Positions 6,934 through 28,195 are shown, numbered from the stretch's first letter. The stretch: DNA of 64,000 nucleotides from Patescibacteria group bacterium (GCA_028865615.1 JAGWJT010000001.1:1601-65600), one strand, 5' to 3'. Notes: generated from the letters alone by a model not told the origin. Numbers and translations are program-made.

Positions 6934-6972
6934 CGACTGTTTAACGGCTCTTTGATATCACAAGCTTGCTCT

Positions 6973-9820: not shown

Positions 9821-10260
9821 GCGGCTTCTATGGCCAGCTTGAACTTGACGGTTTTGTCCCCCACGTTCACCTCTATCATATGTTCACCGGTCTCTTTGAT
9901 CGGATGATCTAGTTTGATTGCCGATGTCTCTATCTGTAGACGCGTCTGTTTCAATAATTCGGCGGCCAATTCTTCCTTGTGCAAGCCGGAAAATAGATGA
10001 CCTTTGTCGTTGGCTTTGGCGGACATAGTGATGGTTTTTCCTTGTAGCTCGTTCAGGCTTTTCAAAGCCAGGTCATCCTGGACTTTGCGCTCGGCCGCGG
10101 CCTTGGCTTTGGCGGCCTCGAGCTTTTTCAGGGCCTGCGGCGTAGCCGCTACGGCATCGCCGCGCGGGATGAGCAGATTCAGGGCATGACCGCTTGAGAC
10201 GTCCTTGACGTCGAACTTGCGTCCCAACTTCGCCATGTCTTTCAACAGTATGATTTTCAT
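9817..10260 (-). CDS. rplI: 50S ribosomal protein L9
   Basis: 147 aa; [34 protein letters not shown] matches the L9 N-domain. Confidence 0.9.
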
Positions 10261-12519: not shown

Positions 12520-13916
12520 AAGGCCATACGACCGAGATCAAGCTCTTCAATACCCTTTCCGGCAAGAAAGAGGCTTTCAAGCCGCTCAGAGCCGGCCATG
12601 TCGGCATGTACCACTGCGGCCCGACGGTGTATGATGATGCTCACATAGGCAATCTTCGATCATACGTATTTGCGGATATCTTGCGACGCACGTTTGAATA
12701 CAACGGCTATTCAATCGACCAGATAGTTAACATCACTGATGTCGGCCATCTAACGAGCGATGCAGACGAGGGAGAAGACAAAATGACGAAGGCCCTGAAA
12801 CGCCTTGGCAAGCCGCTGACTTTGGATGCCATGAGAGAAACGGCGTCCGTTTATGAAGATCATTTCAAAGAAGATCTTGTCCTATTGGATATAGAGACTC
12901 CGTCAGCATTCCCGAGAGCCAGTGACCATATCAAAGACGACATTGAGCTGATCCATACTCTTGAGAAAAACGGGTACGCTTACAAGATCTCCAGAGGAGT
13001 ATGCTTCGACACTTCAAAGTTCGGAACATATGGCAAGCTAGGTAATATAAAGCTTGATTCGTTGAAAGATGGCGCGCGCGTATCTACCGATCCGGAAAAG
13101 AGAAACCAAACAGACTTCTGGCTTTGGAAATTCGATGACAATCTCGGCTGGGACAGCCCTTGGGGTCGAGGATTTCCTGGCTGGCACATAGAATGTTCGG
13201 CTATGTCCCGCAAATATCTCGGCCAACCGTTTGATATACACACGGGGGGCATCGATCATATCCCGGTGCACCACAATAACGAGATTGCTCAATCTGAAGC
13301 AGCATACGGCGTTCCATTGGCAAGATACTGGATACACAACGCTTTCTTGACTATGAATCGGAGCAAGATGGCCAAATCTGCTGGCGGATTTGTAACACTC
13401 AAGACATTGGTGACCAATGATTTATCACCTTTGGCTTACCGTTATTGGTTGTTAACCGGCCATTACCGCTCGCCAATGGATTTCTCGTATGAGGCCATAA
13501 AAGCGGCCCAAAACGCTTATAAACGGCTACAGGAGGCTATGGCTGGATATCCGGAGGGCGGCAAGGTGGATGCCGGCTTTGTCGGTAGATTTAAAGCTTT
13601 GATAAATGACGACTTGGACACGCCCAAGGCATTGGCATTGGCCTGGGAGCTAATCAAAGATGCGGGGGTGGACGATGCGGACAAGCGAGCGACTTTGTTA
13701 GATTTCGATCGGGTATTTGGATTGAAGCTGGGCTCGCTTCCCTGCCCTACTGACGAAGTCATTCCGGACAACGTGCGCGCCCTAGCCGACGAACGCGAAC
13801 AGGCGCGCCAGGCCAAAGACTGGAAAAAAGCCGACAAGTTGCGCGGGGAGATTGAGAGGCTCGGATATGAATTGAGGGACGCAGCTGGTGGAGCGGCTAT
13901 AAAGAAGAAAGTTTAA
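12516..13916 (+). CDS. cysS: cysteinyl-tRNA synthetase
   Basis: Starts MKGHTTEIKLFNTLSGKKEAFKP; HIGN (HIGH) and KMAKS (KMSKS) motifs; the longer ORF from 12153 is an out-of-context N-terminal extension overlapping corA. Confidence 0.9.
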   Translation: MKGHTTEIKLFNTLSGKKEAFKPLRAGHVGMYHCGPTVYDDAHIGNLRSYVFADILRRTFEYNGYSIDQIVNITDVGHLTSDADEGEDKMTKALKRLGKPLTLDAMRETASVYEDHFKEDLVLLDIETPSAFPRASDHIKDDIELIHTLEKNGYAYKISRGVCFDTSKFGTYGKLGNIKLDSLKDGARVSTDPEKRNQTDFWLWKFDDNLGWDSPWGRGFPGWHIECSAMSRKYLGQPFDIHTGGIDHIPVHHNNEIAQSEAAYGVPLARYWIHNAFLTMNRSKMAKSAGGFVTLKTLVTNDLSPLAYRYWLLTGHYRSPMDFSYEAIKAAQNAYKRLQEAMAGYPEGGKVDAGFVGRFKALINDDLDTPKALALAWELIKDAGVDDADKRATLLDFDRVFGLKLGSLPCPTDEVIPDNVRALADEREQARQAKDWKKADKLRGEIERLGYELRDAAGGAAIKKKV

Positions 13917-13930
13917 GCTGGGTATGGCAT

Positions 13931-14051
13931 GACCCGCAGCGGCATCGGTTGAAGAACATTTCGCAGGAATTTTCCAGCAGGAAAATTCCGAGACATAGCG
14001 CGGCCCCTGCAGGGGCCGACGCGTGTTCTTCAACCGATGCCGCTGCGGGTC
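13931..14051. repeat. palindromic intergenic element, copy A (conserved core + locus-specific 13-bp perfect inverted outer arms gacccgcagcggc / gccgctgcgggtc)
   Basis: Core ttcgcaggaattttccagcaggaaaattccgagacatagcgcggcccctgcaggggccgacgcgtg flanked by catcggttgaagaaca / tgttcttcaaccgatg; between convergent cysS and the 14080..14340 gene. Confidence 0.7.
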
Positions 14052-14079
14052 ACTCAACGTGAACACCGATAAAACCCGC

Positions 14080-14340
14080 TCAATCTAGCATAGCGCTCTC
14101 CTTGAACCTGGCGAAGTCGCGGATCTCGCCTTTGACGTCGGACAATTCATCGGCGATATCCTGTCTGCTGGCCTCTATCTTGTCCTCGAGGTCGGCCAGC
14201 CTGCCGTATATGCGCGATTCCGCCGCGTCTATGCGCTCCTCGAGCCTTTCGAAAGACCGGCCTATGGACACGGCCACGTCGTCGCCGTTCTTGTATATGA
14301 CACGCTCTAATAATTCGATGTCTTTTTGTTCTAATGACAT
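14080..14340 (-). CDS. hypothetical small coiled-coil protein
   Basis: 86 aa, charged heptad-like sequence (LEERIDAAESRIYGRLADLEDKIEASRQDIADEL). Confidence 0.45.
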   Translation of the reverse strand: MSLEQKDIELLERVIYKNGDDVAVSIGRSFERLEERIDAAESRIYGRLADLEDKIEASRQDIADELSDVKGEIRDFARFKESAMLD

Positions 14341-14396
14341 ATTTTTTGGCGTTACCTAATAATAACGATACGATAGCAAGTGACCGATAAAATCCG

Positions 14397-14452
14397 ACTC
14401 AAAAAAGTCTCAAATCCAGATAAAAAAAGTCTCAAATCCAGATAAAATTTCT
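14397..14452. promoter_or_regulatory. A-rich tandem motif (aaaaagtctcaaatccagataaaa x2), copy 1 of 3
   Basis: Exact 25-bp tandem duplication in the divergent region between the 14080..14340 gene and dnaB; related copies at 18585-18640 and 25721-25760. Confidence 0.45.
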
Positions 14453-14461
14453 TTCCACAGC

Positions 14462-15919
14462 TTGTCCACCGAAAAAGCGCCTGACGCCTCTCTTGATTCA
14501 TGCCCGCCCGTGCTACAATATGGATACATGAGCCCTCTGTCGCCATACCTGAAGACCAAAGACTTGAAGATACCTCCCCAAAATATCGAGGCGGAAAAGG
14601 CTCTTTTGGGCTCGGTGATGATGCGCGGCGAAGCTATGCACGACATAGTAGATATCGTCGGAGAAAGGTCTTTCTATTCGAACCAGCACAAAGCCATCTG
14701 GCAGAGCCTCTTCGAGCTCCATTCAAAGAACGTGCCCATAGACCTGCTCTCGTTGTCGACCCGCCTCAAGGAAAAAGGCCGCCTAGAAGAAGTAGGTGGC
14801 ATGTCGTATCTTACCGAGCTCATCAATGCCGTACCGTCGTCGACCAACGCCTCTCACTATGCGGAGATAGTCGAGAAGAAGCATGTCATGCGAGAGCTTA
14901 TACGGGCATCGGAGACCATAGGCGATCTCGGATACGACGAGGAGGCGGACTTGCACGACATCCTAGAGAAGGCCGAAAAAGCCCTTTACGAGGTGACCAA
15001 CAAGTCCGGTTCGCACAAATTTGTCGCATTGAAGGACACCCTCGACGAGGCCTGGGAGCGCATAGACCATCTGCACAATACCAGGCATGAGCTCAGGGGC
15101 GTGCCTACGGGCTTCCAGGAGATAGACAACAAGCTGTCCGGATTCCAGAAGTCCGATCTGATCATCTTGGCAGCTCGGCCTTCGATGGGTAAGACTTCCC
15201 TAGCCCTCGACATAGCCCGCAAAGCCGCCGTCAATCACAAAGTGCCCGTGGCCATATTCTCGCTGGAAATGTCATCCCAACAGCTGGTAGACCGCATGCT
15301 TGCAGCCGAGTCGCAGGTGGACGCCTGGAAGCTGCGTACCGGCCACAATCTATCCGTAGAGCACGACTTCAAGGCCATAGGAGACGCCATAAGCAGGCTG
15401 TCGGAGGCTCCCATATACATCGACGACCAGCCCGGCAACCATATCCTCAAGATGCGCGCCGTGGCCCGGCGCCTCAAGAACGAGGGCAAACTCGGCCTCA
15501 TCGTCGTGGATTACCTCCAGCTCATGGTGCCGACCAATGCCGGCAGATACAACGACAATCTCGTCCAGCAAGTCACCGAGATATCCAGATCGCTCAAGAA
15601 CCTGGCCCGCGAGCTGGAAGTGCCCGTACTGGCCCTCTCCCAGCTGTCTCGCGCCGTGGAACAGCGTGGCGGCAAGCCCCGTCTGTCCGACCTTCGCGAT
15701 TCCGGATCCATAGAGCAAGACGCCGACGTGGTCATGTTCATCCATCGCGAAGCCGACCAGGACCAAGGCGGCAGGAAGGAGGAGGCTGAGATCATGATAG
15801 AGAAGCACCGCAACGGTCCGACCGGCTCGATCAAGCTGTACTTCGATTCCAAGAAGACCTCGTTCCTGTCCGTCGACAAAGCCGACTTCGGCGATTTCGA
15901 AAAAGCCGCGGCAAACTGA
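14462..15919 (+). CDS. dnaB: replicative DNA helicase DnaB
   Basis: 485 aa; N-terminal PPQNIEAEKALLGSVM, Walker A ARPSMGKT, RecA-like C-domain; start may be the downstream Met (MSPLSPY, ~14528). Confidence 0.9.
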   Translation: MSTEKAPDASLDSCPPVLQYGYMSPLSPYLKTKDLKIPPQNIEAEKALLGSVMMRGEAMHDIVDIVGERSFYSNQHKAIWQSLFELHSKNVPIDLLSLSTRLKEKGRLEEVGGMSYLTELINAVPSSTNASHYAEIVEKKHVMRELIRASETIGDLGYDEEADLHDILEKAEKALYEVTNKSGSHKFVALKDTLDEAWERIDHLHNTRHELRGVPTGFQEIDNKLSGFQKSDLIILAARPSMGKTSLALDIARKAAVNHKVPVAIFSLEMSSQQLVDRMLAAESQVDAWKLRTGHNLSVEHDFKAIGDAISRLSEAPIYIDDQPGNHILKMRAVARRLKNEGKLGLIVVDYLQLMVPTNAGRYNDNLVQQVTEISRSLKNLARELEVPVLALSQLSRAVEQRGGKPRLSDLRDSGSIEQDADVVMFIHREADQDQGGRKEEAEIMIEKHRNGPTGSIKLYFDSKKTSFLSVDKADFGDFEKAAAN

Positions 15920-15927
15920 TCACTAGT

Positions 15928-16584
15928 ATGGACAGCATGCGACGATTAGAAGAGATATTCGCTCATTTCCCCGGCATCGGGCCGCGGCAAGCAAAGCGCT
16001 TCGTCTATTATCTCCTGAATAGACCGTCCGCTTCCATAAAAGAATTCACAGACTTGATCCACGAAGTCAAAACCTCGACGGCCGAATGCAATCGATGCCA
16101 CCGATTCTTCATGAGTGGAAATAGAGAAGCGGCTGGCGGCGGCAGAAAAACGGTTGTATGTCCTACTTGCGCCGATACATCGCGCGACTCTTCCCTGCTC
16201 ATGGTCGTGGCACGCGATTCGGATTTCGAATCGATAGAGAGAAGCGGCGCCTACAAAGGCCTGTATTTCGTCCTTGGAGGCACAGTGCCAGTCTTGGACA
16301 AAGAGCCAGATAAACGCATACGGTTGAAAGGGCTGTTGGCCAGGCTTGCCCAAAAAGACTCCCCTATCAAAGAAGTGATCTTGTCTCTGAATACCACTCC
16401 TGACGGCGAGAATACCGCGGAAACAGTGAAGCATGCGCTGCTCGATGCATCCGGCGCCGATCCGCTCTCATCGACGGAAACAAACATCAAATTGACCGTC
16501 CTGGGCCGCGGCCTTTCCACCGGCGCCGAGCTAGAATACGTCGACGGCGAGACGATCAGGAATGCCCTGTTGAATAGGCACTAG
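15928..16584 (+). CDS. recR: recombination protein RecR
   Basis: 218 aa; HhH (FPGIGPRQAKRFVYYLL), C4 zinc finger (CNRCHRFF...CPTC), Toprim region. Confidence 0.9.
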   Translation: MDSMRRLEEIFAHFPGIGPRQAKRFVYYLLNRPSASIKEFTDLIHEVKTSTAECNRCHRFFMSGNREAAGGGRKTVVCPTCADTSRDSSLLMVVARDSDFESIERSGAYKGLYFVLGGTVPVLDKEPDKRIRLKGLLARLAQKDSPIKEVILSLNTTPDGENTAETVKHALLDASGADPLSSTETNIKLTVLGRGLSTGAELEYVDGETIRNALLNRH

Positions 16585-16706
16585 TAGGCATCGGGACATC
16601 GGTTGAAGAACATTTCGCAGGAATTTTCCAGCAGGAAAATTCCGAGATATAGCGCGGCCTCTGCAGAGGCCGACGCGTGTTCTGAGGCCGATGTCCCGAT
16701 GCCTAC
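16584..16706. repeat. palindromic intergenic element, copy B (outer arms gtaggcatcggga / tcccgatgcctac)
   Basis: Same conserved core; exactly fills the gap between the recR stop and the rplU stop (convergent). Confidence 0.7.
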
Positions 16707-17039
16707 TTATCCCAGGGAATCAATTTTGACCTTGAAGTAGTGCTGGCGATGGCCATTTCTGGTCCAGCCGGAACGGCTCTTCTGTTTGTATTTGACTACC
16801 AGGACCTTGGCGGATCGGCCGATCTTGGATATGGTGCCGGTCACTTTGGCTTTGGCTATGTAAGGGGTCCCTATAGTAGTATCTTTGCCGTTATCTACAA
16901 GCAAAATCTTGTCGAAGACGACTTGGTCGCCCTCTTTGTATTCTTTGCCTTTTTCAGCCAAAAGCTTCTCGATAGTGATGGTATCGCCCTTGGAAACGGT
17001 ATATTGCTTGCCTCCTGTGGCTATGACTGCAAATTCCAT
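16707..17039 (-). CDS. rplU: 50S ribosomal protein L21
   Basis: MEFAVIATGGKQYTVSKGDTI matches the L21 N-terminus; the longer ORF to 17078 is an upstream extension. Confidence 0.85.
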   Translation of the reverse strand: MEFAVIATGGKQYTVSKGDTITIEKLLAEKGKEYKEGDQVVFDKILLVDNGKDTTIGTPYIAKAKVTGTISKIGRSAKVLVVKYKQKSRSGWTRNGHRQHYFKVKIDSLG

Positions 17040-17093
17040 AGTGCGTCCCACTATACAGGAATGGGTCCAAAAACGCAACTTTTTGGGTTTTTG

Positions 17094-17217
17094 GGGACCG
17101 GCGCGGACATCGGTTGAAGAACATTTCGCAGGAATTTTCCAGCAGGAAAATTCCGAGACATAGCGCGGCCTCTGCAGAGGCCGACGCGTGTTCTGAGGCC
17201 GATGTCCGCGCCGGTCC
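17094..17217. repeat. palindromic intergenic element, copy C (outer arms ggaccggcgcgga / tccgcgccggtcc)
   Basis: Same conserved core; between the rmuC stop and the rplU start (same strand). Confidence 0.7.
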
Positions 17218-18275
17218 TATTCAGTGACTTCCGGTTTGTCCAGCAAAACCGGCTCCAGACCCGGAGTCTCGCCCGTTATGCGCAAGACGTCCTTGTCTAC
17301 CTTCTTGAATTCCTTGCTCGAATTGTTGTAGTGGTTGACTACGGTCGATAGCGACACGCCAAGCTTGGAATGGTAATCCTCGTATTTTTTCAGGTGGGTG
17401 CCCAGCTGACCGACATGCTTGACTATATCCTTGGCTGTTTCTTCGATCTGCATAGCCTTCAAACCCTGCAAAACGGTCTGCAGATAGGCCAAGAACGAGG
17501 TCGGCGACACTATGATGACCTTGTACTTGCTGGCGGCGCGCTGTATCAGATTGTCCGTCTCGTCGGCGGATGAACCGATCTTGTTCACGAGCAGATCATA
17601 ATAGATAGCCTCATGCGGTATGAACATGAAAGCGAAGTCCATGGTCTTCTCGTCGGGCCTGATATATTTGGCCGTTTCCTGGATGCGCAGCTTGAGATCG
17701 TTGACGAAAGCCTTCTCCAGACGTTCCTTGTCGGCCGGATTCTTCTCCTCGGCCATCTTGTTGTAGTTTTCCAACGAGAACTTCGAGTCGACGGGTATGA
17801 CCTTGTCTTTGACGAAAACGGCCGCATCCACTACTTCCCCATTCTTGAACGGATATTGCATCTGATATTGGCCGGGTGGCAAAACATTCTTGAGCAAGGT
17901 CTCCAGATAATATTCGCCGAGGATGCCGCGATGCTTGGGATTCTTGAGTATATCCTCGAGCTCGCGTAGCTGGTTCTGAACAGACAAACTCTGTTCGCCT
18001 ATCTTCTTGACCTGAGTGATCTCGCTGGTGATGTCCTTGATCAACCTCTGCGACTCGCCGAACTGGCGATGGAGAGCGTTGGACATCTCCTTTGTGTTCT
18101 CGCCCAACTTGCGGTCGACTGTGTCGGACAAGCGATTGACCTGATCCAGCAACAACTTCAAGCCCGAGGAATCGTCAGTCGGCTTTATCCCTCTCTTTCC
18201 GCGAGAAATGGCCGCTAGTTGGATGATAATAACGACTGCTACGAGAATTATAAGTAGTATGAGTAGGATTTCCAT
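17217..18275 (-). CDS. rmuC: DNA recombination protein RmuC
   Basis: 352 aa; N-terminal TM, long coiled coil, C-terminal RmuC nuclease-like region (FMFIPHEAIYYDLL...VIIVSPTSFLAYLQ). Confidence 0.8.
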   Translation of the reverse strand: MEILLILLIILVAVVIIIQLAAISRGKRGIKPTDDSSGLKLLLDQVNRLSDTVDRKLGENTKEMSNALHRQFGESQRLIKDITSEITQVKKIGEQSLSVQNQLRELEDILKNPKHRGILGEYYLETLLKNVLPPGQYQMQYPFKNGEVVDAAVFVKDKVIPVDSKFSLENYNKMAEEKNPADKERLEKAFVNDLKLRIQETAKYIRPDEKTMDFAFMFIPHEAIYYDLLVNKIGSSADETDNLIQRAASKYKVIIVSPTSFLAYLQTVLQGLKAMQIEETAKDIVKHVGQLGTHLKKYEDYHSKLGVSLSTVVNHYNNSSKEFKKVDKDVLRITGETPGLEPVLLDKPEVTE

Positions 18276-18277
18276 AT

Positions 18278-18577
18278 CTAATGCATGACTTTATCGACAG
18301 CGTTGTTTACAATATCAATGATAGAAGGAGCTATAGCTAATGTGAATTCTTCACGAAATACTCTTCGTGACTCTTCTGTGGCTATCTCTCTGGCTCTTTC
18401 GTCTGTAGAATAACCGGACATTAGCTCTTTCATTAATTTAAACTCATAACTCATTTTATCCCAAAGCAGGCCGTTATTTAGCTTGACGGCTTCGTTTATA
18501 GACGTATCTATGTATCTTTTATCGCTTATTGTAAGCATTGAAATGTATGCTAATCTTATAATGTCTGGAGTATACAC
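18278..18577 (-). CDS. hypothetical protein (AT-rich, no recognisable domain)
   Basis: 99 aa ORF in an AT-rich stretch directly downstream of rmuC. Confidence 0.4.
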   Translation of the reverse strand: MYTPDIIRLAYISMLTISDKRYIDTSINEAVKLNNGLLWDKMSYEFKLMKELMSGYSTDERAREIATEESRRVFREEFTLAIAPSIIDIVNNAVDKVMH

Positions 18578-18584
18578 ACAAGGT

Positions 18585-18640
18585 GTTCAAATCCGGCTCA
18601 AAAAAGTCTCAAATCCGAATCAAAAAAGAATCAAATTTTA
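18585..18640. promoter_or_regulatory. A-rich tandem motif copy 2 (gttcaaatccggctcaaaaaagtctcaaatccgaatcaaaaaagaatcaaat)
   Basis: Lies in the divergent region between the 18278..18577 gene start and the GatB/YqeY gene; a TATAAT box follows at 18652-18657. Confidence 0.45.
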
Positions 18641-18668
18641 ATAAAATCGCATTATAATCATACACGCC

Positions 18669-19142
18669 ATGACCCTACATCAGACGATTAAAGACCAAGT
18701 CAAAGACGCTCTGCGCGCAAAGGATACGATACGCCTGGACACATTGCGCGGCCTGAATGCCCTATTCCTGAACGATATCGTTATGGGCAAAGCCGAAGCC
18801 GACAAAGACGGCAACATAACCGACGACAAGGCTCTAGCCATCATCAAGCGTTCGGCCAAACAGCGCAAAGACTCTATCGAGCAGTTCGAAAAAGGCGGCA
18901 GGCAAGACTTGGCAGCCAAGGAGAAAGAGGAATTGGCCATCCTGGAATCATTCATGCCGGACATGATGAGCCGCGAGGAGATAGCTATCATAGCCAAAGC
19001 GCGCATAGAAGCCCTGAAGACGGGCGGCACTTTCGACCCGAAAGCGGGCGGCAAGATCACGGGTATGATCATGAAAGAATTGGCCGGCAAAGCCGACGGC
19101 GCAGATGTCAAAGCGGTGGTGGACGAGCTGTTGACAAAATAG
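18669..19142 (+). CDS. GatB/YqeY domain protein
   Basis: 157 aa; all-helical small protein whose pattern (TIKDQVKDALRAKD...RLDTLRGL...) matches the YqeY family. Confidence 0.75.
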   Translation: MTLHQTIKDQVKDALRAKDTIRLDTLRGLNALFLNDIVMGKAEADKDGNITDDKALAIIKRSAKQRKDSIEQFEKGGRQDLAAKEKEELAILESFMPDMMSREEIAIIAKARIEALKTGGTFDPKAGGKITGMIMKELAGKADGADVKAVVDELLTK

Positions 19143-19394
19143 CACTAGTGGTGCTATAATGACAGCCGAACTCAACGAAAGGTTCTTATGACATTACAGC
19201 GTGGATTGGAATTGCTTCGTGCTACTAGGGAAGCTATAACGCGCGGAGAAGATGTCAATGCGTTGATCCCAAAGATCATCCCGGAGACACGTTTCAAAGT
19301 TCCCATATCTGTTGAAGGTCTTGCGCCATCAACAAAAACTGAGAACGGGCGTGAGTCATCCCTCCAACTCAATATATCTTATATGACATATTGG

Positions 19395-20246
19395 TTATGA
19401 AGACGATAGGCCACAGATACCAAAGACTCGACCGGCGTTCCGGAGCAATGCCGCCTCGACGGTTTCGACCGGCAGCTTCTTTATCATTGCGATCTTCTCG
19501 ACCACGGCCGACACATATGACGGCTCGTTGCGCTCCCCGCGATGAGGAACGGGTGCAACGAACGGACAGTCCGTCTCGGCATGCATCATGTCTAGCGGTA
19601 CATATTCGACCAATTCGGCATACTGCTTGGCAAAAGTGATGACGCCAGTGAACGACAGAGTGAAGCCGATGTCCAAGAATCTGCGAGCCTGCTCTACCGT
19701 ACCTGCAAAGAAGTGGGCGTTGCCTTTGACCTCGGCGCGCGACTTCAGGATCTCAAGCGCGTCATCGTATGCCTCGCGGATGTGTAGCATGAGGGGCTTG
19801 TTGAACTCGTTGGCCAGATCTATCTGGGCTTCAAAAGCCGCCTTTTGCCTGGCTTTGGCGGCCGGTTCGGCATTTGACCTGTAGTAGTCCAGGCCGACCT
19901 CCCCTACTCCGACTACTTTGGGATGCTTGATGAGCTCGCGGTATCGGTCAGCGTCAAAATCTTCGCCGCGCGACGTGAATCCGGAGGCATTGGCATTACC
20001 ATTATCCCCCAATTCTTCATTATCATGGAATGAAGCGGATGTGTGGATGGGATGCAAACCTATTATGGCATACACCCCATCGTACTTTTCGGCTATGTCT
20101 ACAGCCTTCCTGGACATGTCATATTGCGTGCCTACGTTAATGAACGCAGTACCAGCGTCAAGTGCCCGCCTGGCCACCACGTCCCTATCCGCGTCAAAAG
20201 CGGTGAAGTTCAGGTGGGCATGAATGTCTATGCGCTTGATTGTCAT
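19395..20246 (-). CDS. tatD: TatD-family metal-dependent DNase/hydrolase (with an internal ~25 aa Asn/Gly-rich insertion)
   Basis: 283 aa; MTIKRIDIHAHLNF (HxH), GLHP, GEVGLDY and the C-terminal motifs of TatD. Confidence 0.85.
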   Translation of the reverse strand: MTIKRIDIHAHLNFTAFDADRDVVARRALDAGTAFINVGTQYDMSRKAVDIAEKYDGVYAIIGLHPIHTSASFHDNEELGDNGNANASGFTSRGEDFDADRYRELIKHPKVVGVGEVGLDYYRSNAEPAAKARQKAAFEAQIDLANEFNKPLMLHIREAYDDALEILKSRAEVKGNAHFFAGTVEQARRFLDIGFTLSFTGVITFAKQYAELVEYVPLDMMHAETDCPFVAPVPHRGERNEPSYVSAVVEKIAMIKKLPVETVEAALLRNAGRVFGICGLSSS

Positions 20247-20264
20247 GAATTGATTCTACCAGAA

Positions 20265-20389
20265 ATGCAGGAATCAGACACCGGTTGAAGAACATTTCGC
20301 AGGAATTTTCCAGCAGGAAAATTCCGAGACATAGCGCGGCCTCTGCAGAGACCGACGCGTGTTCTGAGGCCGATGTCTGATTCCTGCAT
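20265..20389. repeat. palindromic intergenic element, copy D (outer arms atgcaggaatcaga / tctgattcctgcat)
   Basis: Same conserved core; between the tatD start and the ABC transporter stop. Confidence 0.7.
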
Positions 20390-20392
20390 CAA

Positions 20393-22240
20393 TCACTGAT
20401 GCAAACCTATCTGCAACTCATACAATCGCCTGTACTCGCCGCCTTCGATCCTGAGCAGTTCTTCATGCTTGCCCCGCTCTATGATGTGGCCGTCCTTGAA
20501 AACCAGGATGAGATCGGCGCGGCGGACCGTAGAGAGCCTGTGGGCGATGATAAAAGTGGTCTTGCCCTGCATAAGCTCATTCAAGGAATCTGTGATGGTC
20601 TTCTCCGTAGAGGCGTCTAGGGCCGACGTGGGCTCGTCAAGGATGAGGATCACGGGATCACGGAGTATGGCTCTGGCGATAGACACACGCTGCTTTTGCC
20701 CCACGGACAATTTGATGCCGCGCTCGCCTACCATCTGCTTCCACTTGTCAGGAAACTTCTCTATGAAATTCAGGGCATCGGCTTTGCGCGCCGCTTCATG
20801 CACGGCCGCTTCGTCGGCCATAAAATTGCCGTACTTGACGTTCATCTCTATGGTGTCATTGAAAAGCACCACTTCCTGCGGCACCACGGCTATCCTGGAT
20901 CGCAGATCTATCAAGTCGACTTTGCGTATGTCATGGCCATCTATCTCTACTTTCCCTTTGTCGGCAAAATGGTAGCCGGATATGAGGTCGACGAGCGTTG
21001 ATTTGCCTACGCCGGACTCGCCTACCAGAGCCACTACGTCGCCCGGCCGCGCTTCAAAGGATATGCCTTCGAGAACAGGTTTGCTCCGCTGTCCCGACCG
21101 GCCGGCCGGTAGGCCGGGCGCGTCTTCATCGTATCTGAAATCCACCCCTTCGAACCTCACGCCTCCTTTTACGGCAAATCTCTCCGCCCCGGCCGGGTGG
21201 TACGCTTCCGGCGGCAACCGCAGCATCTTCTCTGTCTCGTCCAGATTGACTATGCCGTTCTGGATGGTCTGCCACTGCCTGGCTATGGTCACGAACGGCC
21301 CGAATATCATGGCGGCGTAGGCGTTGAAAGCTATGAGCTCGCCTATGGTCATATCGCCGGCATGGATGTACAACGCGGACAATATGAATATGAGGACTTG
21401 AGTGACCAAGATAGTCAGGCGCTGATACAGAGACAGATCGCCCCAGACCTGGGTCATGCGCATCCATAGGGGCAATGCCTTCTTGGAATTGGAATTCAAT
21501 TTGTTGCGCTCGTACTCCTCGGCCGTGGCCTGCTTGACTGCCAGAGCGTTGCCGACGACCTCGTAGTTGTCGCCCCAGACGGACTTGAAAAGGATGTCAT
21601 AGTATTCCTTCTGGTAGCCGGCCAGAGGTCCTATCTTTCTGACCAGGACAAAGACGTATATGAGCAGGCCGGCGATCAGTATGAGGGCCAGCAACGGCTT
21701 CATATAGAAAGCGATGCCGAAAGCGATGACTATAGACAGTATCTGTGGCGCCAAGTCTATGACGATGTTCCCTGCGATGGTCTCCAATGATCCCGCGGCG
21801 GTGTTGATCTTGCCGGCCACTTCGCCTATCTTGTTCTTCTTGTGGAATGACATGGGCAAGAGCAGCAGGAAGCCGAAGCCGTTGGCAAGATAATCCAGCC
21901 AAACGGTGTTGGAGAAGTACTGGCTCATGATGTTGATGCGCCAGTCCAAGAAGTAAGTGACGAGCTGTATGACGGTCCATAGGACAAGCACGGCGATGTA
22001 TAGAGCCACGGCATAGCCCATAAATGAGACCGTGGCGGGGCTGACCAGGGCGTCAAAGAATTTTCCGGCTATATACGGTATGGTGCCGTTGCCCAGGGCG
22101 GACAGTATGCCCATGACGGACAGGATGACAATCTGGCGCCTGTATCGGCCCATGTACGAGAAAAGGACCTTGGAACCCGTGACCAGGCCTTCCTTGGTGA
22201 TCTTGCTGTCTTTAGGCTTTTGCTCGTCTTCCGGTTGCAT
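20393..22240 (-). CDS. ABC transporter, fused permease/ATP-binding protein (MsbA/multidrug-exporter type)
   Basis: 615 aa; 6 TM N-terminal domain then NBD with Walker A GESGVGKST, signature LSVGQKQRVSIAR and Walker B ILILDEPTSALD. Confidence 0.85.
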   Translation of the reverse strand: MQPEDEQKPKDSKITKEGLVTGSKVLFSYMGRYRRQIVILSVMGILSALGNGTIPYIAGKFFDALVSPATVSFMGYAVALYIAVLVLWTVIQLVTYFLDWRINIMSQYFSNTVWLDYLANGFGFLLLLPMSFHKKNKIGEVAGKINTAAGSLETIAGNIVIDLAPQILSIVIAFGIAFYMKPLLALILIAGLLIYVFVLVRKIGPLAGYQKEYYDILFKSVWGDNYEVVGNALAVKQATAEEYERNKLNSNSKKALPLWMRMTQVWGDLSLYQRLTILVTQVLIFILSALYIHAGDMTIGELIAFNAYAAMIFGPFVTIARQWQTIQNGIVNLDETEKMLRLPPEAYHPAGAERFAVKGGVRFEGVDFRYDEDAPGLPAGRSGQRSKPVLEGISFEARPGDVVALVGESGVGKSTLVDLISGYHFADKGKVEIDGHDIRKVDLIDLRSRIAVVPQEVVLFNDTIEMNVKYGNFMADEAAVHEAARKADALNFIEKFPDKWKQMVGERGIKLSVGQKQRVSIARAILRDPVILILDEPTSALDASTEKTITDSLNELMQGKTTFIIAHRLSTVRRADLILVFKDGHIIERGKHEELLRIEGGEYRRLYELQIGLHQ

Positions 22241-22434
22241 GAATATTGAAAATCATTTTAGCACACATACCGCCAAGCTACTCTTTACAAACACGGTCAA
22301 TTATGGTACCATCTATATCAGATTGATGCTTGTTCGTTGACAAGCTTTGGAGGCCCCGCCTCCGTCGATCTCAACCAAAACCTGCCGATTTTGCTCCCAA
22401 CGGGAGCAACCATCGGCGCAAAAAGGATCAAGCG

Positions 22435-23526
22435 ATGAAAAATCGTATGTTCAGCCTGATCGTGGCTTTCGCGATCGTCCAAGAATCGTCTGTCATCGCC
22501 GCCCTCAAAGCGCCGATGACAGTCGCTCAAGAAGCGGCCATGTTGGCGGCCATCACGCCGACCAACGCCGCGGTAGCCGCTAAAATTGTAACCAAACATG
22601 GATTTACTTTGGCTTCTGCCTCGCTGGATACTACCGGCTCGTCTGGCCAACAAAGCCAGCCGCTAAGTATCATCCCCCCGTCGTCACTGCCGGACTCGTT
22701 GCCGATCGGAAATCTCGATAAGATGCTCGACTACATGGTGAGCAATGCCGCGTATCCTGATTTTAGGTTGAGCTTCTCCACAACTACAAATAGTTACCAA
22801 TACTATGAACGGACCTATGGCGGCGTCCTAAAATTCGACTCATACGCATCTTTCGAACAATGTATGATGACGAACTGTTGGTATGTATACACAAACTTCA
22901 TTGCTTCCAGAACAGATGTTACGTCACCTATCGGATTAACGGTGATCGTTAACTACGACCCGGTTATATTAAACAGTGGCTTAATAATATTAACCAATAA
23001 TGTCGGCTATGTCGGAAGCATTACTTCCAATAGTTTCCTCGGCATTACCAATGCGTTTAACCGGTTGCGTCCACCTGTTATAGTCAGCGGACTGTCTCAG
23101 TTCAAAGTAACGGTTGACGTCAATCCTCCGTATTCCTATACGTGGACGGCGTCCGGACAAAATTCACCGAAAGTCATCGGCGGATATCCGATAGAATGGA
23201 CGACAAATGGAGTGGTGATATTGAACCAATGGTATGGCATGGGTCAATACAGAGCACGGTTCACCATAACGGCCAACGGTCAGACCAGGACATATACCCA
23301 ATCAGGCTCTCCGTTGCAGGGCGCAGAGTTGTCCATGACGAGCCGTTCAAACCTCTTGGTATCAATGACAAGCGGTTCAGACACTTACATTGAAGCATCA
23401 ACCAATCTAACTGACTGGACTACCGTGACGAATTTCCCATGGCAGTTCACCGGCATGACGAATTGCACTTCCATAATCATTGATCCTGACCTGCCAGAAC
23501 AATTCTTCAGGGCCAGGTCGGAATAA
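22435..23526 (+). CDS. hypothetical secreted protein sharing a C-terminal ~60 aa module with the 4129..6933 protein
   Basis: Start chosen at the ATG at 22435 (MKNRMFSLIVAFAIV); C-terminus YIEASTNLTDWTTV...TNC...FFRARSE parallels YTIQASTNLASTDWQNIA...TNCPFRFYRAVSQ. Confidence 0.5.
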   Translation: MKNRMFSLIVAFAIVQESSVIAALKAPMTVAQEAAMLAAITPTNAAVAAKIVTKHGFTLASASLDTTGSSGQQSQPLSIIPPSSLPDSLPIGNLDKMLDYMVSNAAYPDFRLSFSTTTNSYQYYERTYGGVLKFDSYASFEQCMMTNCWYVYTNFIASRTDVTSPIGLTVIVNYDPVILNSGLIILTNNVGYVGSITSNSFLGITNAFNRLRPPVIVSGLSQFKVTVDVNPPYSYTWTASGQNSPKVIGGYPIEWTTNGVVILNQWYGMGQYRARFTITANGQTRTYTQSGSPLQGAELSMTSRSNLLVSMTSGSDTYIEASTNLTDWTTVTNFPWQFTGMTNCTSIIIDPDLPEQFFRARSE

Positions 23527-23576
23527 ACTCGGAACGAACAAAGTCCCCGGAGCTTAGAGCTGCCGGGGCATTTTTA

Positions 23577-24926
23577 TCACTTTTCTGATTCGGATGAGGA
23601 ATTCAGATTCAGGATAACCGGGTTACCATCATTGCTATACGTATCATTTCCACCACCTGGAACTCCGGTATACTGACAGTATATTGAGAATGTATAAGTG
23701 CCAGCTTTTGCTCCAGTTGTATCAAAAGGAGCAGAACCGCTGGGACCAGCACCCCATCCACTTGACCAACCAGAATTAGTCTGCGCATAACAGGTATAAT
23801 CACTCAAACCTGACAACGAGTTAGCCCACGCCAACTCGAATTTCTGACCAACAGACAAATTTAGAGATGTCCTTGTAGCGTTGCCGGGAACTCCTATGTT
23901 TAGTGATACTGGATAAGTATTGTTAACTTGTGTTCCGCTTACAATTACGGTGCCGCATTGGTTGGCGGTACTCCCCATGATATATTTGCCCGTCGAATCA
24001 TATACAGCGACTCCGGGCGAATACGAATTGTCGGTCTTGTTAGTATTTGATGGATAATTGAATGTATAATTCACCGTATTATCTCCTTGAGACAGAGCCG
24101 TGTATGAAGAATAATTACCCGTTCCATCCAAGAATCTATACTTATACCCCGATGAAGCAGGGACATTCGTCACCGTAGCAGTGACCTTGACTCCACCTCC
24201 ATTTGATGACAACGACAGAGGGCTAGCTGAACAAGAACTTATAGACACCGTGCTCCCGCAATTGCCGCCAGGACAGTTGTTGATGATTATGCCTTGGCCG
24301 TTGCTGCCTGGGATGTCGAACTGGAGCCAGCCGACGACAGGGCCGCCCCAGGCATAGCCGCTGAAAGCACCGGTTGAAGGATTCATGTAAACTCCGCCGC
24401 CCGGTGCCGACGAAGGACTCGGGCTGGGACTGGAGCTAGAGCTCGGACTGCCGGAAGAAGAAGGTGATGGGCTTGAGCTCGGACCGGAACTTGATTGGGT
24501 CGCTATGGAAGGGTGATTTGCTCCCGAAAGCTCTATCCATCCGTCCCAGCCGTCAGTGCGTCCTTTACCGGACAAAGCCATAGCCCAGCCGGTGACGGCA
24601 CCTGTAGACAAATTGACGCGAGGACCGCATATGCCGTTGGCGGGGACTACCGGACAACCGGCAACATCGCTATCATTGAAATAGATCCAACCTATATTTG
24701 AAGACCACAAGTATCCGGATATGACGCCGCTACTGTTCACGGTCAATGAATACGGCCCGCCGCCGCCCGCGCCGGATTGGGTGGAGCTGGCGCTGACCCA
24801 GCCTATGGTCGACGACCAGGCCCAGCCGCTAGATTGCCCGCCGGTGATCTGGGCGCTCACTCCTATGATGCCCACGGCCAGAACGGCCAGCGCTAATATG
24901 CTCAAGGTATAGATGTGTTTTTTCAT
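23577..24926 (-). CDS. secreted protein with a Ser/Pro-rich linker and repeated GW-containing beta-strand motifs
   Basis: 449 aa; signal peptide; SSSGPSSSPSPSSSGSPSSSSSPSPSPSS linker; repeats TIGWVSA, NIGWIYF, VTGWAMA, VVGWLQF. Confidence 0.6.
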   Translation of the reverse strand: MKKHIYTLSILALAVLAVGIIGVSAQITGGQSSGWAWSSTIGWVSASSTQSGAGGGGPYSLTVNSSGVISGYLWSSNIGWIYFNDSDVAGCPVVPANGICGPRVNLSTGAVTGWAMALSGKGRTDGWDGWIELSGANHPSIATQSSSGPSSSPSPSSSGSPSSSSSPSPSPSSAPGGGVYMNPSTGAFSGYAWGGPVVGWLQFDIPGSNGQGIIINNCPGGNCGSTVSISSCSASPLSLSSNGGGVKVTATVTNVPASSGYKYRFLDGTGNYSSYTALSQGDNTVNYTFNYPSNTNKTDNSYSPGVAVYDSTGKYIMGSTANQCGTVIVSGTQVNNTYPVSLNIGVPGNATRTSLNLSVGQKFELAWANSLSGLSDYTCYAQTNSGWSSGWGAGPSGSAPFDTTGAKAGTYTFSIYCQYTGVPGGGNDTYSNDGNPVILNLNSSSESEK

Positions 24927-24967
24927 GCCATAATTTTACCATTAATGCGCGGAACGCACTTGGTGAC

Positions 24968-24976
24968 TGTGGATAA
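24968..24976. promoter_or_regulatory. perfect DnaA-box 9-mer (TGTGGATAA = reverse complement of TTATCCACA)
   Basis: Exact match to the consensus; single copy, so probably a regulatory site or chance rather than an origin. Confidence 0.25.
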
Positions 24977-25154
24977 CGGCGTCTATCATCCGCGGACCGG
25001 CAATATGACAGTGAAAACCTAGCCTTTCCCGCGGCCGGCGAACTCAGCTTTGACTTTGATGGTTTTGGGGAACATCCATAGCAGATATGTCAGCACATTT
25101 CATCGGTTACGCCTCGCGGCTTCACACCGACACGTCCTGCCGAACCCCGCAAGA

Positions 25155-25182
25155 TTGACAAGCAGAGCCAAAAGCATATAAT
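25155..25182 (+). promoter_or_regulatory. near-consensus sigma70-type promoter TTGACA-N16-TATAAT
   Basis: ttgaca (25155-25160) and tataat (25177-25182) read directly from the sequence. Confidence 0.5.
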
Positions 25183-25188
25183 TGCCAG

Positions 25189-25345
25189 CAATTAGATCAT
25201 TTCCGATGTAGTAAACAGCCCCCAAGTCTACGGCCTTGATCAACCAGCGGTTGCAAAGGCGTTGAGGGGTACGGGGTCCCTCCGGAACAATCTTGCTCCG
25301 CAATGCGGAGATTCTGCAAAAAGCCTTTAAGAGAGGCTTTTTGTT
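25189..25345 (+). ncRNA. candidate small RNA (~155 nt) from a consensus promoter to an intrinsic terminator; no ORF
   Basis: The transcript would run from ~25189 to the terminator at 25317-25345; it contains the hairpin ctccgc-aat-gcggag; there is no downstream + strand gene. Confidence 0.35.
25317..25345. terminator. intrinsic terminator (aaagcct-ttaagag-aggcttt + TTGTTTTT)
   Basis: Stem-loop with T-run; can also serve the minus-strand ORF ending at 25327. Confidence 0.6.
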
Positions 25346-25686
25346 TTTCTGTTCATGACGCTCAGAAAATATGGCTGTTTATCTTTGATTTGTCCGATTA
25401 TCACGACCACTTTCTTATCACCTATCGTTTTTTCGACAGACCATTCTCTGTACGAACCAGAAAGACGACAACCTATAATAGACGTTTTATCTGTCAAAAT
25501 GCTGGGTACGTGGGGTATAAGGCGTAGTCTTCTCATAATATCTTCGGCTGTATGGCCTCCATTGAAGATATGATTCCAACCCCTATGATCAAATATCACA
25601 GGCTTGTCGTCCAATGCTGCGCAACAAATGTGGCCGAACGAAAAATAGATCTGCCGTATCTTTTTGGCGAATGCGTTGTCGAACAT
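25327..25686 (-). pseudogene. possible C-terminal fragment of a metallophosphoesterase (FGHICC ... GGHTAED); low-confidence ORF
   Basis: 119 aa; weak resemblance to the C-terminal GH-x-H region of calcineurin-like phosphoesterases; the N-terminal motifs are absent. Confidence 0.25.
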
Positions 25687-25720
25687 CCACCCACCGTATC
25701 ACAGCGGTGTTCAAGAAACG

Positions 25721-25760
25721 TTCAAAAAAGTCTCAAATCGGAATCAAAAAAGAATCAAAT
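25721..25760. promoter_or_regulatory. A-rich tandem motif copy 3 (ttcaaaaaagtctcaaatcggaatcaaaaaagaatcaaat)
   Basis: Near-identical to copy 2; lies 35-75 bp upstream of the 25327..25686 minus-strand ORF start. Confidence 0.45.
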
Positions 25761-26008
25761 CCGAGTGAAGAAAATGAACCCTAGGCAACAGGCTTGTTAT
25801 ATAAGCCGACCACGGCGTCATGGAAAGATAACGTGATCACATCCGGATCGGACTAGGCCGGCACCGATATGAGCTCGCCCATGTTGACCGGTGAACACGC
25901 CGAGCAGTCCGTATATGAAAGATATGACGTTTATCTCCGGCCTGTAGAAAAGATTGAAATACGCCCATGCCAATGGCCAAGTGACGGTTTGCGATATGCG
26001 TAGAGGAT

Positions 26009-28195
26009 TCATGTGATTATCGGCCAGCTCTCCACCATGAGCGGCTTCTTGCCTTTTCCGGCGGCCAGTGCCACCGGCATATCCGACCATATCTCTTCCG
26101 TTATGTAAGGCATGAATGGATGCAAGGCGCGGAGAAGCTTGTCCAAGGTCTCAACCAAGAGACGTTTGCGCGAAGCTATGCCTTCCGCAGATTCATTTTG
26201 AAAGACATGCTTGCTGTTTTCCAATATCTGATCGGCAAACTGATGCCAAGCGTACTGATACAGTTTCTCCGCAACAATGTAGAATTTATATTCGTCCATC
26301 TCTGCCGTAATCTCCTTAAACAGTTTATCTCTAACATCTATCAGAGCGACGTCGTTTGCGGAATATGAGACGCTCATATCAACATCATTTACATTCTCGA
26401 ATATGAACCTGGCTATGTTCCACAGCTTGTTGGCAAATTTTTTGTAGGCTGAGACCTTGCCTTCTGACAATGCCAGCGACGTACCGGGCGTATTGCCTAT
26501 GACCATTCCCATACGAAATGCGTCCGTTCCAAATTTGGCCGTCAGTGTCAACGGATCTATAACATTGCCTTTACTCTTGCTCATCTTTTGGCCTTTAGCA
26601 TCCAGAACCAGACCATGCAGATAGACAGTCTTGAAAGGCATCTTGCCAGTAACATACAATCCCAACATAATCATGCGCGATACCCAGAAAAATATTATTT
26701 CTCCTGCAGTCTCCATGACATCGGTAGGATAATATGTTTTAAAATCCTCACTTCCCGGAAATCCCAGAGAAGCGAAAGGCCACTGTGACGATGAGAACCA
26801 TGTATCGAACGTATCGTTATCTTTGATTAGATCTCCGCCACACTTTGCACACGTTCTTAACTTGTCATCGAGATCGACAAAACCTTCTCCGCATTTCTGA
26901 CATATCTTTGCCGGTATGGGTATGCCCCATACAATCTGCCTAGATATATTCCAGTCGATTATATTCTCAAGCCAATGGGTAGTTATCTTCTTGTAATGTT
27001 CAGGTATATACTCTATCTCCCCGGATTTGATCTTTTCCAAAGCTTTATCAGCCAACGGTTTCATATGGACAAACCATTGGCTCTTTATCTGCGGTTCTAT
27101 TATCGTGCCGCATTTGTAACATGTACGCACCACATGCTTATAATTCATATCTGTTTTTTCCACCAAACCTTTAGCTTTGAGTTTCTCTATGATGAGCGGT
27201 CTAGCTTTCTTGATATTCATTCCGACAAATTCTCCGGCTATCGGTAATAGCTTACCTCGCTCGTCTATTATCTGTTCCTTGTCCAGATGATGGCGCTCGG
27301 CTATTTCGAAATCCACCGGATCGTGCCAAGGCGTTATCGTCATGACGCCAGTACCAAATTCCATGTCTATCGCCTTATCCTTAATGATGGTAGCGGTTAT
27401 CGGACCGTTGATCCATTCCAGGCTTATCTTTTGGCCATCTTCGTACTCGGCATATCTCTTATCGTCTGGATGCATGACTACGTACTTGTCACCAAACTTA
27501 GTCTCTGGTCTGGATGTAGCTATAGTGAATGGGCCATATTTCAAATAATAGAATTCCTCCGTACGTTCTTCATCTTTTATTTCAAGGTCAGAGAAAGAGG
27601 TCTGATGCTTGGGACACCAAGATACGATGCGTTTGCCTCTATAGAGCAGACCGTCTTCAGACAATCTTTTGAATGTGTCATATACCGTTCTTACGATATC
27701 ATTGTCCAAAGTGAATTTTTCTCGAGACCAATCGCATGAAGCGCCGATCTTCTTGATCTGTTCCTTTATGTTCGCCGAATTAGTCAAAGTAAAATCAAGT
27801 ATTTCCTGATATAGCTTCTTTGGCTCTATCTCGAATCTAGTCCTTCCTTCTTTCTCAAGCTTTTTCTCATAAACTACTTGCGTCTCGAAACCGGCATGGT
27901 CTAGACCAGGTAACCACAAGGTACGATATCCTCGCATCCTTTTATAACGAGTCATTATGTCTTCAATGGTCATAACCAAGCCGTGACCGGCATGCAACGA
28001 CCCATTAGCATTAGTAGGCGGCATTATTATAGTAAAAGGTTTGGCCATATCGGTGACAAGGCCATCTTCCAAACATTTATCCGGGTTGAAATAACCGCTG
28101 TCCTGCCACAGCTTGTAAATGCGTCCCTCTACGGCCGCCGGGTCATATGGTTTCAAGAATTTGTCCGGAGCCTTGCTGGGCGGCTTTTCATTCAT
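26009..28195 (-). CDS. valS: valyl-tRNA synthetase (short form without the C-terminal coiled-coil)
   Basis: Class I aaRS with PPTNANGSLHAGH (HIGH) and KMSKSKGN; start assigned to MNEKPPSKAP (28195) to avoid overlap with the divergent tsaD. Confidence 0.9.
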   Translation of the reverse strand: MNEKPPSKAPDKFLKPYDPAAVEGRIYKLWQDSGYFNPDKCLEDGLVTDMAKPFTIIMPPTNANGSLHAGHGLVMTIEDIMTRYKRMRGYRTLWLPGLDHAGFETQVVYEKKLEKEGRTRFEIEPKKLYQEILDFTLTNSANIKEQIKKIGASCDWSREKFTLDNDIVRTVYDTFKRLSEDGLLYRGKRIVSWCPKHQTSFSDLEIKDEERTEEFYYLKYGPFTIATSRPETKFGDKYVVMHPDDKRYAEYEDGQKISLEWINGPITATIIKDKAIDMEFGTGVMTITPWHDPVDFEIAERHHLDKEQIIDERGKLLPIAGEFVGMNIKKARPLIIEKLKAKGLVEKTDMNYKHVVRTCYKCGTIIEPQIKSQWFVHMKPLADKALEKIKSGEIEYIPEHYKKITTHWLENIIDWNISRQIVWGIPIPAKICQKCGEGFVDLDDKLRTCAKCGGDLIKDNDTFDTWFSSSQWPFASLGFPGSEDFKTYYPTDVMETAGEIIFFWVSRMIMLGLYVTGKMPFKTVYLHGLVLDAKGQKMSKSKGNVIDPLTLTAKFGTDAFRMGMVIGNTPGTSLALSEGKVSAYKKFANKLWNIARFIFENVNDVDMSVSYSANDVALIDVRDKLFKEITAEMDEYKFYIVAEKLYQYAWHQFADQILENSKHVFQNESAEGIASRKRLLVETLDKLLRALHPFMPYITEEIWSDMPVALAAGKGKKPLMVESWPIIT

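Follow-up and report, generated by a model that had tools for sequence, protein, structure and literature searches.

Phased 11-bp repeat arrays upstream of small genes in a Paceibacteria-type genome as putative operators of an OmpR/PhoB-type activator

Three arrays of direct repeats lie in a 64-kb stretch of DNA (64,000 nucleotides, hereafter the window) from a Patescibacteria group bacterium, each of them upstream of a small gene on the minus strand, and we describe these arrays here together with their counterparts in related genomes. On sequence grounds the source is a Paceibacteria-type Patescibacteria metagenome-assembled genome (MAG); the closest relatives of the window DnaB, at 81-88% identity, are labelled Paceibacterota, Taylorbacteria or Minisyncoccia, and the window has a GC content of 51%. 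The arrays, the -10-like hexamers and small open reading frames (ORFs) beside them, and the genes near the three sites are as follows.

Array 1, 14388..14453, minus strand: plus-strand units TAAAATCCGAC TCAAAAAAGTC TCAAATCCAGA TAAAAAAAGTC TCAAATCCAGA TAAAATTTCTT, upstream of the promoter of the 86-aa gene
-10-like hexamer TATCGT, 14370..14375, minus strand: 12 nt from the proximal repeat of array 1, predicted transcription start near 14363
86-aa acidic coiled-coil protein, 14080..14340, minus strand: presumed target gene of array 1
Array 2, 18587..18652, minus strand: units TCAAATCCGGC TCAAAAAAGTC TCAAATCCGAA TCAAAAAAGAA TCAAATTTTAA TAAAATCGCAT
-10-like hexamer TATACT, 18569..18574, minus strand: 12 nt from the proximal repeat of array 2, predicted transcription start near 18562
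Small ORF, 18278..18538, minus strand: listed as 99 aa from GTG 18577, 86 aa from ATG 18538
Array 3, 25711..25776, minus strand: units TCAAGAAACGT TCAAAAAAGTC TCAAATCGGAA TCAAAAAAGAA TCAAATCCGAG TGAAGAAAATG
-10-like hexamer TACGGT, 25693..25698, minus strand: 12 nt from the proximal repeat of array 3 and 6 nt before ATG 25686
119-aa hypothetical protein, 25327..25686, minus strand: presumed target gene of array 3
cysS, plus strand, near the sites
dnaB, plus strand, near the sites
recR, plus strand, near the sites
Ribosomal protein L21 gene, minus strand, near the sites
rmuC, 17217-18275, minus strand: directly 3' of the small ORF 18278-18538
yqeY, plus strand, near the sites
tatD, minus strand, near the sites
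ABC transporter gene, minus strand, near the sites
Two large unannotated proteins, one on each strand, near the sites
Class I aminoacyl-tRNA synthetase gene, minus strand, near site 3

An earlier note on this DNA had described near-identical elements of about 45 bp, built from tandem half-repeats, at the three sites. The repeats are where it placed them: the 18-mer TCAAAAAAGTCTCAAATC occurs exactly at 14399, 18598 and 25722, with degenerate second copies 22 bp downstream (14421, 18620 and 25744). With up to three mismatches allowed, this 18-mer gave six matches against 0.05 expected, a number reached in none of 100 shuffles; the core AAAAAGWMTCAAAT returned the same six sites, and a position-weight matrix scan of both strands of the 64 kb found no further copy beyond the three sites. 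The element proved longer than proposed, each site comprising six consecutive 11-bp units (66 bp) with T(C/A/G)AA(A/G) once per helical turn. The 22-mer resolves into two 11-bp halves with TCAAA once per turn, and a pattern of four phased TCAAA matched these three sites only (0.01 expected). All three arrays read TCAAA on the plus strand, and their units alternate between two kinds, giving a 22-bp period. The half-repeat form described earlier held at sites 2 and 3, where the second 22-mer is GAATCAAAAAAGAATCAAAT, but not at site 1, where it is TAAAAAAAGTCTCAAATCCAGA. Sites 2 and 3 have in common additional left-hand sequence, GTAT(A)CACA..GGTGTTCAA.

To follow the arrays beyond the window, approximately 240 kb of the window and its relatives was scanned for T-N-A-A-R at 11-bp intervals, with at least 4/5 required. 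Ten arrays were found and, rather than being scattered at random or inside genes, all ten were intergenic and in one orientation. Other periods (7-15) gave 0-3 arrays and 20 block shuffles gave none, indicating that the period of 11 is specific. At every site the 11-bp recurrence of T-N-A-A-R extends over 5-10 units, and the number of units per array ranges from 6 to 10.

Loci around DnaB orthologues (L015, L016, L018-L021 and L026) share the gene order cysS/86-aa/dnaB/recR/L21 gene/rmuC/yqeY. In the window, L015 and L018-L021 the spacer between the 86-aa gene and dnaB carries an array whose orientation and position are unchanged, and L016 has a weaker form of it; counted over the relatives, this spacer has the array in six of seven, L016 being the seventh. 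The element is thus conserved at orthologous promoters; the array on the yqeY side is found only in the window and L018. Between the T-N-A-A-R cores the sequence drifts among orthologous arrays, and in L015 the array consists of TCAAA/TGAAG every 11 bp with no A run longer than 3. A metagenome pattern scan recovered related arrays with their flanks in L003, L006 and L008. The remaining candidates from that scan (L001, L004, L005, L007, L009-L012 and L014) were rejected as unrelated 22-bp tandem repeats that have no more than the 12 specified bases in common with the arrays; L009 has the appearance of low-complexity DNA. Likewise, an exact-pattern scan of GTDB species-representative genomes returned only unrelated tandem repeats of Segatella and Desulfobacterales sharing those 12 bases. 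A literature search found no such promoter motif described for Patescibacteria.

Presence and absence of the arrays follow the small genes. On the yqeY side an array is found only where a small minus-strand gene sits between rmuC and yqeY, as in the window and L018, and the six fetched genomes that lack this inserted gene have no array there. On the dnaB side, L026 has dnaB but neither the 86-aa gene nor an array, and it retains a DnaA-box-like pair, TATCCACctcTTGTCCAC; L027, in which the 86-aa gene lies beside a Peptidase_S24 gene instead of dnaB, retains the array. The distance from the arrays to the -10 elements of dnaB and yqeY is variable, ranging from 0 to ~125 bp. Towards the small genes, 10 of 14 arrays have a TAnnnT hexamer at a distance of exactly 12 nt from their first repeat, and two others have one at 11 nt, against a background of ~3% per offset. 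L023, L025 and L027 also have TAnnnT at 11 nt, bringing to 15 of 17 the arrays with this hexamer 11-12 nt from the proximal pentamer. The yqeY-side array of L018 has the identical TATACT at the same offset as array 2.

Two checks on the position of the hexamer came from the genes beyond it. At site 3, 6 nt separate it from the start codon of the 119-aa gene, which is the common leaderless spacing here, and in L008 a tRNA-like gene has its 5' end 8-9 nt beyond it. On the basis of presence and absence, the fixed hexamer offset and these two checks, we consider it highly probable that the array is a promoter element of the small minus-strand genes. The earlier note had placed two of the arrays upstream of dnaB and yqeY, which is true as geometry, but L026, L027 and the variable distance leave them untied to those genes. 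The tRNA-like gene of L008 (493-560, minus strand), which starts 8-9 nt past the -10 of the array promoter, scored 21.2 bits against an Rfam tRNA threshold of 29 bits and was missed by ARAGORN.

The small genes themselves are diverse. As stated earlier, the arrays lie just upstream of their starts, with 48 nt between array edge and ATG for the 86-aa gene (14340), 49 nt for the middle ORF (ATG 18538) and 25 nt for the 119-aa gene (25686), and protein comparison detected no mutual similarity among the three products. None of the three has a family match. The 86-aa protein, with a net charge of about -9 as read from sequence and no match in Pfam or NCBIfam, belongs to a conserved Paceibacteria family with 706 homologue clusters, identity among the top matches being 70-87%. 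The length of 99 aa given for the middle ORF (18278-18577) is probably too great: because GTG 18577 lies upstream of the predicted transcription start, this ORF probably begins at ATG 18538 and encodes 86 aa, which would make its product and the dnaB-side protein equally long. Its 92-aa counterpart in L018 aligns with it from ATG 18538, the similarity being weak (25% identity). Since rmuC directly adjoins the small ORF, the two are likely to form one operon.

A scan for sigma-70 promoters and terminators at the three sites made no useful call, and none of the three has a sigma-70-type -35/-10 pair for its small gene. This has to be read against the promoter style of the genome. A Shine-Dalgarno-like tetramer precedes only 4 of 55 window genes of at least 100 aa, and in many genes a TAnAAT, frequently accompanied by TGn, stands 6-10 nt ahead of the start codon with no -35 (for example at gene starts 2067, 14528, 18669 and 43725, and at minus-strand ends 20246, 38518 and 49428). 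Leaderless mRNAs from extended -10 promoters thus seem to be the norm here, and the promoter of array 3 is predicted to give a leaderless transcript, with a start at about 25686. A literature search found no paper tying leaderless translation to Patescibacteria. The hexamers at the arrays (TATCGT, TATACT, TACGGT, TATCCT, TAAAGT and others) are weaker than the TAnAAT before most other genes, which fits dependence on an activator.

Upstream of array 3, ~230 bp of non-coding DNA (25777-26008) separates the array from the stop codon of the aminoacyl-tRNA synthetase gene. It contains a plus-strand -10-like sequence, TATATAAG, and two GC-rich inverted repeats, and a plus-strand transcript from it would be antisense to the 3' end of the synthetase gene. 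In a search of the whole window with Rfam at gathering thresholds, only four tRNAs and a DUF3800-II RNA were found, none of them over the arrays; Rfam covariance models applied to 13900-26400 at E up to 1 gave no relevant match over the arrays, and a tRNA search found none there. The DUF3800-II RNA (RF02961, 54 bits) at 56476-56545 on the plus strand overlaps the end of a minus-strand gene (56528-57106) whose product starts MHIFIDESGIHK and resembles DUF3800, the pairing expected for this RNA.

A candidate regulator emerged from the relatives. In L003, a gene for an OmpR-family regulator (Response_reg and Trans_reg_C) ends at the array, and the order rpsB-tsf, regulator gene, array was found in L003, L022, L023 and L025, in the last three with TAnnnT at 11 nt. 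In L024 these genes are present too, but the array is weak. Orthologues of the regulator, 60-69% identical, are widespread across the clade, and their recognition-helix region, SNPFSNTVEAH(I/V)RN, is nearly invariant, which would be consistent with the conserved T-N-A-A-R half-site core. The regulator near the array falls below the PhoB equivalog cut-off (149 vs 296 bits). Regulator loci and dnaB or 86-aa loci occur together on contigs of 356,648 bp (L025/L026) and 461,472 bp (L023/L027), and an 857-kb contig likewise combines the regulator with dnaB or the 86-aa gene.

Downstream of the regulator gene and the adjoining array lies a conserved non-coding stretch of ~200 nt, which begins with the hairpin GGTTATGAGTCGACATAACC and ends with a terminator-like hairpin; the hairpin is also present in L024, where its arms are changed and its loop is kept.

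Non-coding stretch: L022 10795-10985; L023 10805-10990; L024 10765-10975; L025 ~6775-6990; L003 1-70 (minus strand)

Because it has no match in Rfam, we regard this stretch as a candidate for an undescribed RNA driven by the array promoter. Its fold gave no reliable structure, the three sequences used having aligned poorly. A further OmpR-family regulator gene was met on a 593-kb metagenome contig (L013, 41% GC) from an unrelated organism, where two tandem copies of the identical AAAAAGTCTCAAAT (~2850-2950 in original coordinates) lie ~60 bp upstream of the gene, whose product has the C-terminus ...IQTIHNIGYRI. These repeats could be a coincidence, or the AAAAAGTCTCAAAT core could be a common OmpR-type half-site.

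Arrays within a genome are more alike than orthologous arrays of different genomes. Compared in register, the window sites are 73-79% identical in pairs, and the two arrays of L018, both of which use TTAAGAAAAGT/TAAAATAATCA, are 93% identical; site 1 and its orthologous arrays in other genomes are 52-64% identical. A third variant, AGGCyTTTCTTAGATCTwTTTTTGGwTTTTTTTGAACCTTTTTT, is used at both the regulator-side and the 86-aa-side arrays of the 461-kb contig (L023 and L027). Array 3 and the array of the metagenome contig L008 are 80% identical in register, the flank GGTGTTCAAG included. Greater likeness within than between genomes fits co-evolution with one trans-acting factor, homogenisation of copied cassettes, or both. 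In L018, structured sequence common to both arrays follows each of them (9870-9940 and 15150-15250): first a hairpin and then GTTCTGrCTTCG...GTCAGAAGAAAATTTCCTTAAT, one of the two copies containing an additional, nested hairpin. To the left of the dnaB-side array there are 8-9 bp tandem repeats (AAGTATTAA-like) with inverted copies, at 9670-9790.

We propose, at a probability of roughly 55% for the full model, that the arrays are operator arrays for a winged-helix activator of the OmpR/PhoB type that controls a small regulon. In the direction of the minus-strand genes, about six direct repeats of (C/T)TTNA every 11 bp would all fall on one face of the helix. The proximal heptamer TTTGAnn would lie at about -29 to -23 and the next at about -40 to -34, with the array reaching to about -90 and no -35 hexamer. 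Head-to-tail dimers of a winged-helix regulator may load cooperatively along the array, the likeliest binder being the orphan OmpR/PhoB-family response regulator conserved in the clade, and the promoter-proximal subunit would contact RNA polymerase and compensate for the weak -10, as PhoB does at Pho boxes. The regulon would include, at least, the 86-aa coiled-coil gene, the second 86-aa ORF with rmuC, and the 119-aa gene, and in relatives also the conserved non-coding stretch beside the regulator gene. Binding, the identity of the OmpR-type regulator as the binder and activation are all three points that we infer, the choice of binder following from the architecture, the Pho-box-like geometry and the conserved adjacency to such a gene. 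The earlier note had read the repeats as response-regulator or winged-helix sites, and this gained support, as neither random or intragenic placement nor absence from orthologous promoters was found.

Operator arrays of direct repeats for two-component regulators are a textbook kind of element. OmpR itself binds several tandem dimer sites (F1-F3/C1-C3) from roughly -40 to -100, with half-sites every 10 bp, and the CtrA boxes of alphaproteobacteria, TTAA-N7-TTAA, have half-sites 11 bp apart that take single dimers. CtrA and MtrA are also precedents for OmpR-family regulators acting near replication genes. Closest in geometry are the Pho boxes of E. coli, bound by PhoB: 11-bp direct repeats on one helical face, each with a core and an A/T-rich linker, placed in tandem 10 bp upstream of a TAN3T/A -10 element and replacing the -35 (PMC1906773). 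In the arrays the heptamer TTTGAnn likewise ends 10 nt, and the pentamer 12 nt, from TAnnnT. Pho boxes differ in their core (CTGTCAT rather than (C/T)TTNA), in typically having two to four half-sites rather than six or more, and in serving phosphate genes, whereas the presumed target genes here have no phosphate link. In the operators of Streptomyces coelicolor PhoP the direct-repeat units are 11 nt long and number up to six; conserved core units stand beside degenerate extension units, and filling proceeds cooperatively outward from the core (PMC2275107). Sites 2 and 3 have GTTCAA in their proximal units, which is similar to the GTTCAY core of the PhoP operators. The latter belong, however, to the phosphate regulon of a high-GC actinobacterium, and the position of operator relative to promoter varies there but is fixed here.

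Phased A/T tracts could instead act without any dedicated factor, as curved DNA or a UP-like element that contacts the alpha subunits of RNA polymerase or wraps the enzyme, giving a boost to weak promoters that have only a -10. One strand of the arrays is A-rich in a genome of 51% GC, A6 and A3T tracts alternate every 11 bp in the window, and the arrays lie directly upstream of promoters without a -35, so that, as with phased A-tracts and UP elements, A/T-rich tracts recur once per helical turn upstream of a promoter. What is conserved, however, is a specific pentamer: L015 keeps the cores and the 11-bp phase without long A runs, so phased A-tracts of at least 4 bp are not a conserved property of the arrays. 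The non-A positions (GTCTC, TCC) are identical between the sites of a genome and change together between genomes, only 3 of ~60 window promoters carry the element, and the array starts at about -25, nearer the transcription start than UP elements, which are located at about -40 to -60. The earlier note had allowed for UP elements or bent DNA; the L015 array weakens this alternative, which we keep as a rival and judge rather unlikely. A different protein, whether nucleoid-associated, filament-forming or a repressor, might also occupy the arrays and silence or tune the promoters. The architecture needs only cooperative binding on one helical face, the stretch covered (-25 to -90) is one where repressors can act too, and array 2 extends over the -35 region of yqeY, whose promoter has TATAAT at 18653. 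Against this stand the head-to-tail 11-bp repeats ending ~10 bp from the -10, which are the signature of an OmpR/PhoB-type activator (PMC1906773, PMC2275107), and the OmpR-family gene beside the array in four loci; the small array-side proteins are acidic and so unlikely binders. A binder of another kind therefore seems to us unlikely. Autoregulation by the adjacent small proteins was rejected, as these are mutually unrelated, the 86-aa protein is strongly acidic and none has a family match.

The likeness of the sites might simply reflect recent common descent, if a portable promoter cassette (the -10 and the tandem repeats) had been dispersed, and its copies homogenised, by duplication, gene conversion and slippage. 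The arrays at sites 2 and 3 and in L008 can be aligned as far as the -10 and its flank, although the genes they drive are unrelated; the small gene with its array has the look of an insertion separating rmuC from yqeY, being present in two of eight genomes only; and the number of units varies while tandem units within one site are nearly identical. Dispersal of this kind would explain where the arrays came from and not what they do, and it can be reconciled with the regulon model. Genomes whose DnaB is 82-88% identical to that of the window keep the array at the 86-aa gene, and phase and -10 distance are preserved despite sequence drift, which argues for selection; no terminal inverted repeats and no genes for transposases were noticed next to the arrays, though no search was dedicated to such repeats. 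As the whole explanation we consider a cassette improbable. Least probable of all, in our view, is that the arrays regulate dnaB and yqeY or serve as low-affinity DnaA sites in phase with the DnaA boxes upstream of dnaB. Two arrays do precede these genes, array 1 runs in 11-bp phase into the DnaA-box-like 9-mers CTTTCCACA and TTGTCCACC (14451-14470), and L020 carries a perfect TTATACACA in this position. But L026 keeps the DnaA-box pair and dnaB without an array, L027 keeps the array without dnaB, no plus-strand gene lies downstream of the array at site 3 or in L003, the arrays stand at varying distances from the dnaB and yqeY promoters, and the units match the DnaA box TTATNCACA at only ~4/9 positions. 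Nor is there a change of GC skew or gene orientation at 14.4 kb, which argues against a replication origin.

Several observations weigh against an OmpR/PhoB-type activator. Response regulator genes are absent from both the 64-kb window and the dnaB loci, so the link between array and regulator rests on synteny in relatives. A -35 hexamer is missing from most promoters in this genome, which have an extended -10 instead, and its absence at the arrays is therefore in itself no sign of activator dependence. The hexamer rule is broken by the L006 array (TAACAA, with no gene on that side) and by the dnaB-side array of L018 (CATAAT), and the arrays fall into two classes by offset, one with 11 and one with 12. 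Leaders of 23-25 nt are predicted at sites 1 and 2, though leaderless mRNAs look usual here, and both sites have a second -10-like hexamer nearer the gene. Finally, near-identity over 18-40 bp exceeds what a regulator normally needs, and recent copying of a promoter cassette could explain it.

Two kinds of origin were considered for the sites and rejected. Cumulative GC skew declines steadily along the window without a switch at 14.4 kb, and gene orientation does not change there either, the genes to the right being mostly on the minus strand. Plasmid and phage iterons share with the arrays a structure of 22-bp tandem direct repeats that are near-identical within a replicon; unlike them, the arrays have no initiator gene, GC-skew switch or origin context, lie among cysS, a small ORF, dnaB, rmuC, yqeY and the synthetase gene, and occupy three dispersed chromosomal sites fixed against promoters.

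The DnaA-box-like sequences beside array 1 are of interest in their own right. The two 9-mers, arranged as CTTTCCACA gc TTGTCCACC, are 11 bp apart and lie ~45 bp upstream of the extended -10 of dnaB, TGCTACAAT (14511-14519). The pair is conserved upstream of dnaB in L015, L016, L018-L021 and L026, and is in helical phase with array 1. Because it is found in all of these relatives and is kept in L026 without an array, its conservation suggests that dnaB may be under DnaA control.

A broader and more speculative scheme, which we put forward as unlikely but worth stating, would make the orphan OmpR-family regulator beside rpsB-tsf a Paceibacteria-wide master regulator. The arrays would then be portable, fast-turnover cassettes homogenised in each genome, and the core regulon would consist of the universal 86-aa protein, usually back-to-back with dnaB and in phase with its DnaA boxes, and an undescribed structured RNA of ~200 nt beside the regulator gene. 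If this is true, a reduced symbiont genome would possess a minimal control circuit of a cell-cycle-like kind.

Looking at the group as a whole, the arrays offer a concrete cis-element for Patescibacteria, one whose geometry is defined, which has a candidate regulator and, within a single genome, three or more target promoters, and which is conserved across many MAGs. In genomes that appear to be largely leaderless and free of Shine-Dalgarno sequences, such arrays could anchor the prediction of promoters and transcription starts. As a first sketch of a regulon in a little-studied group, they may provide an entry point into regulation in the Patescibacteria.

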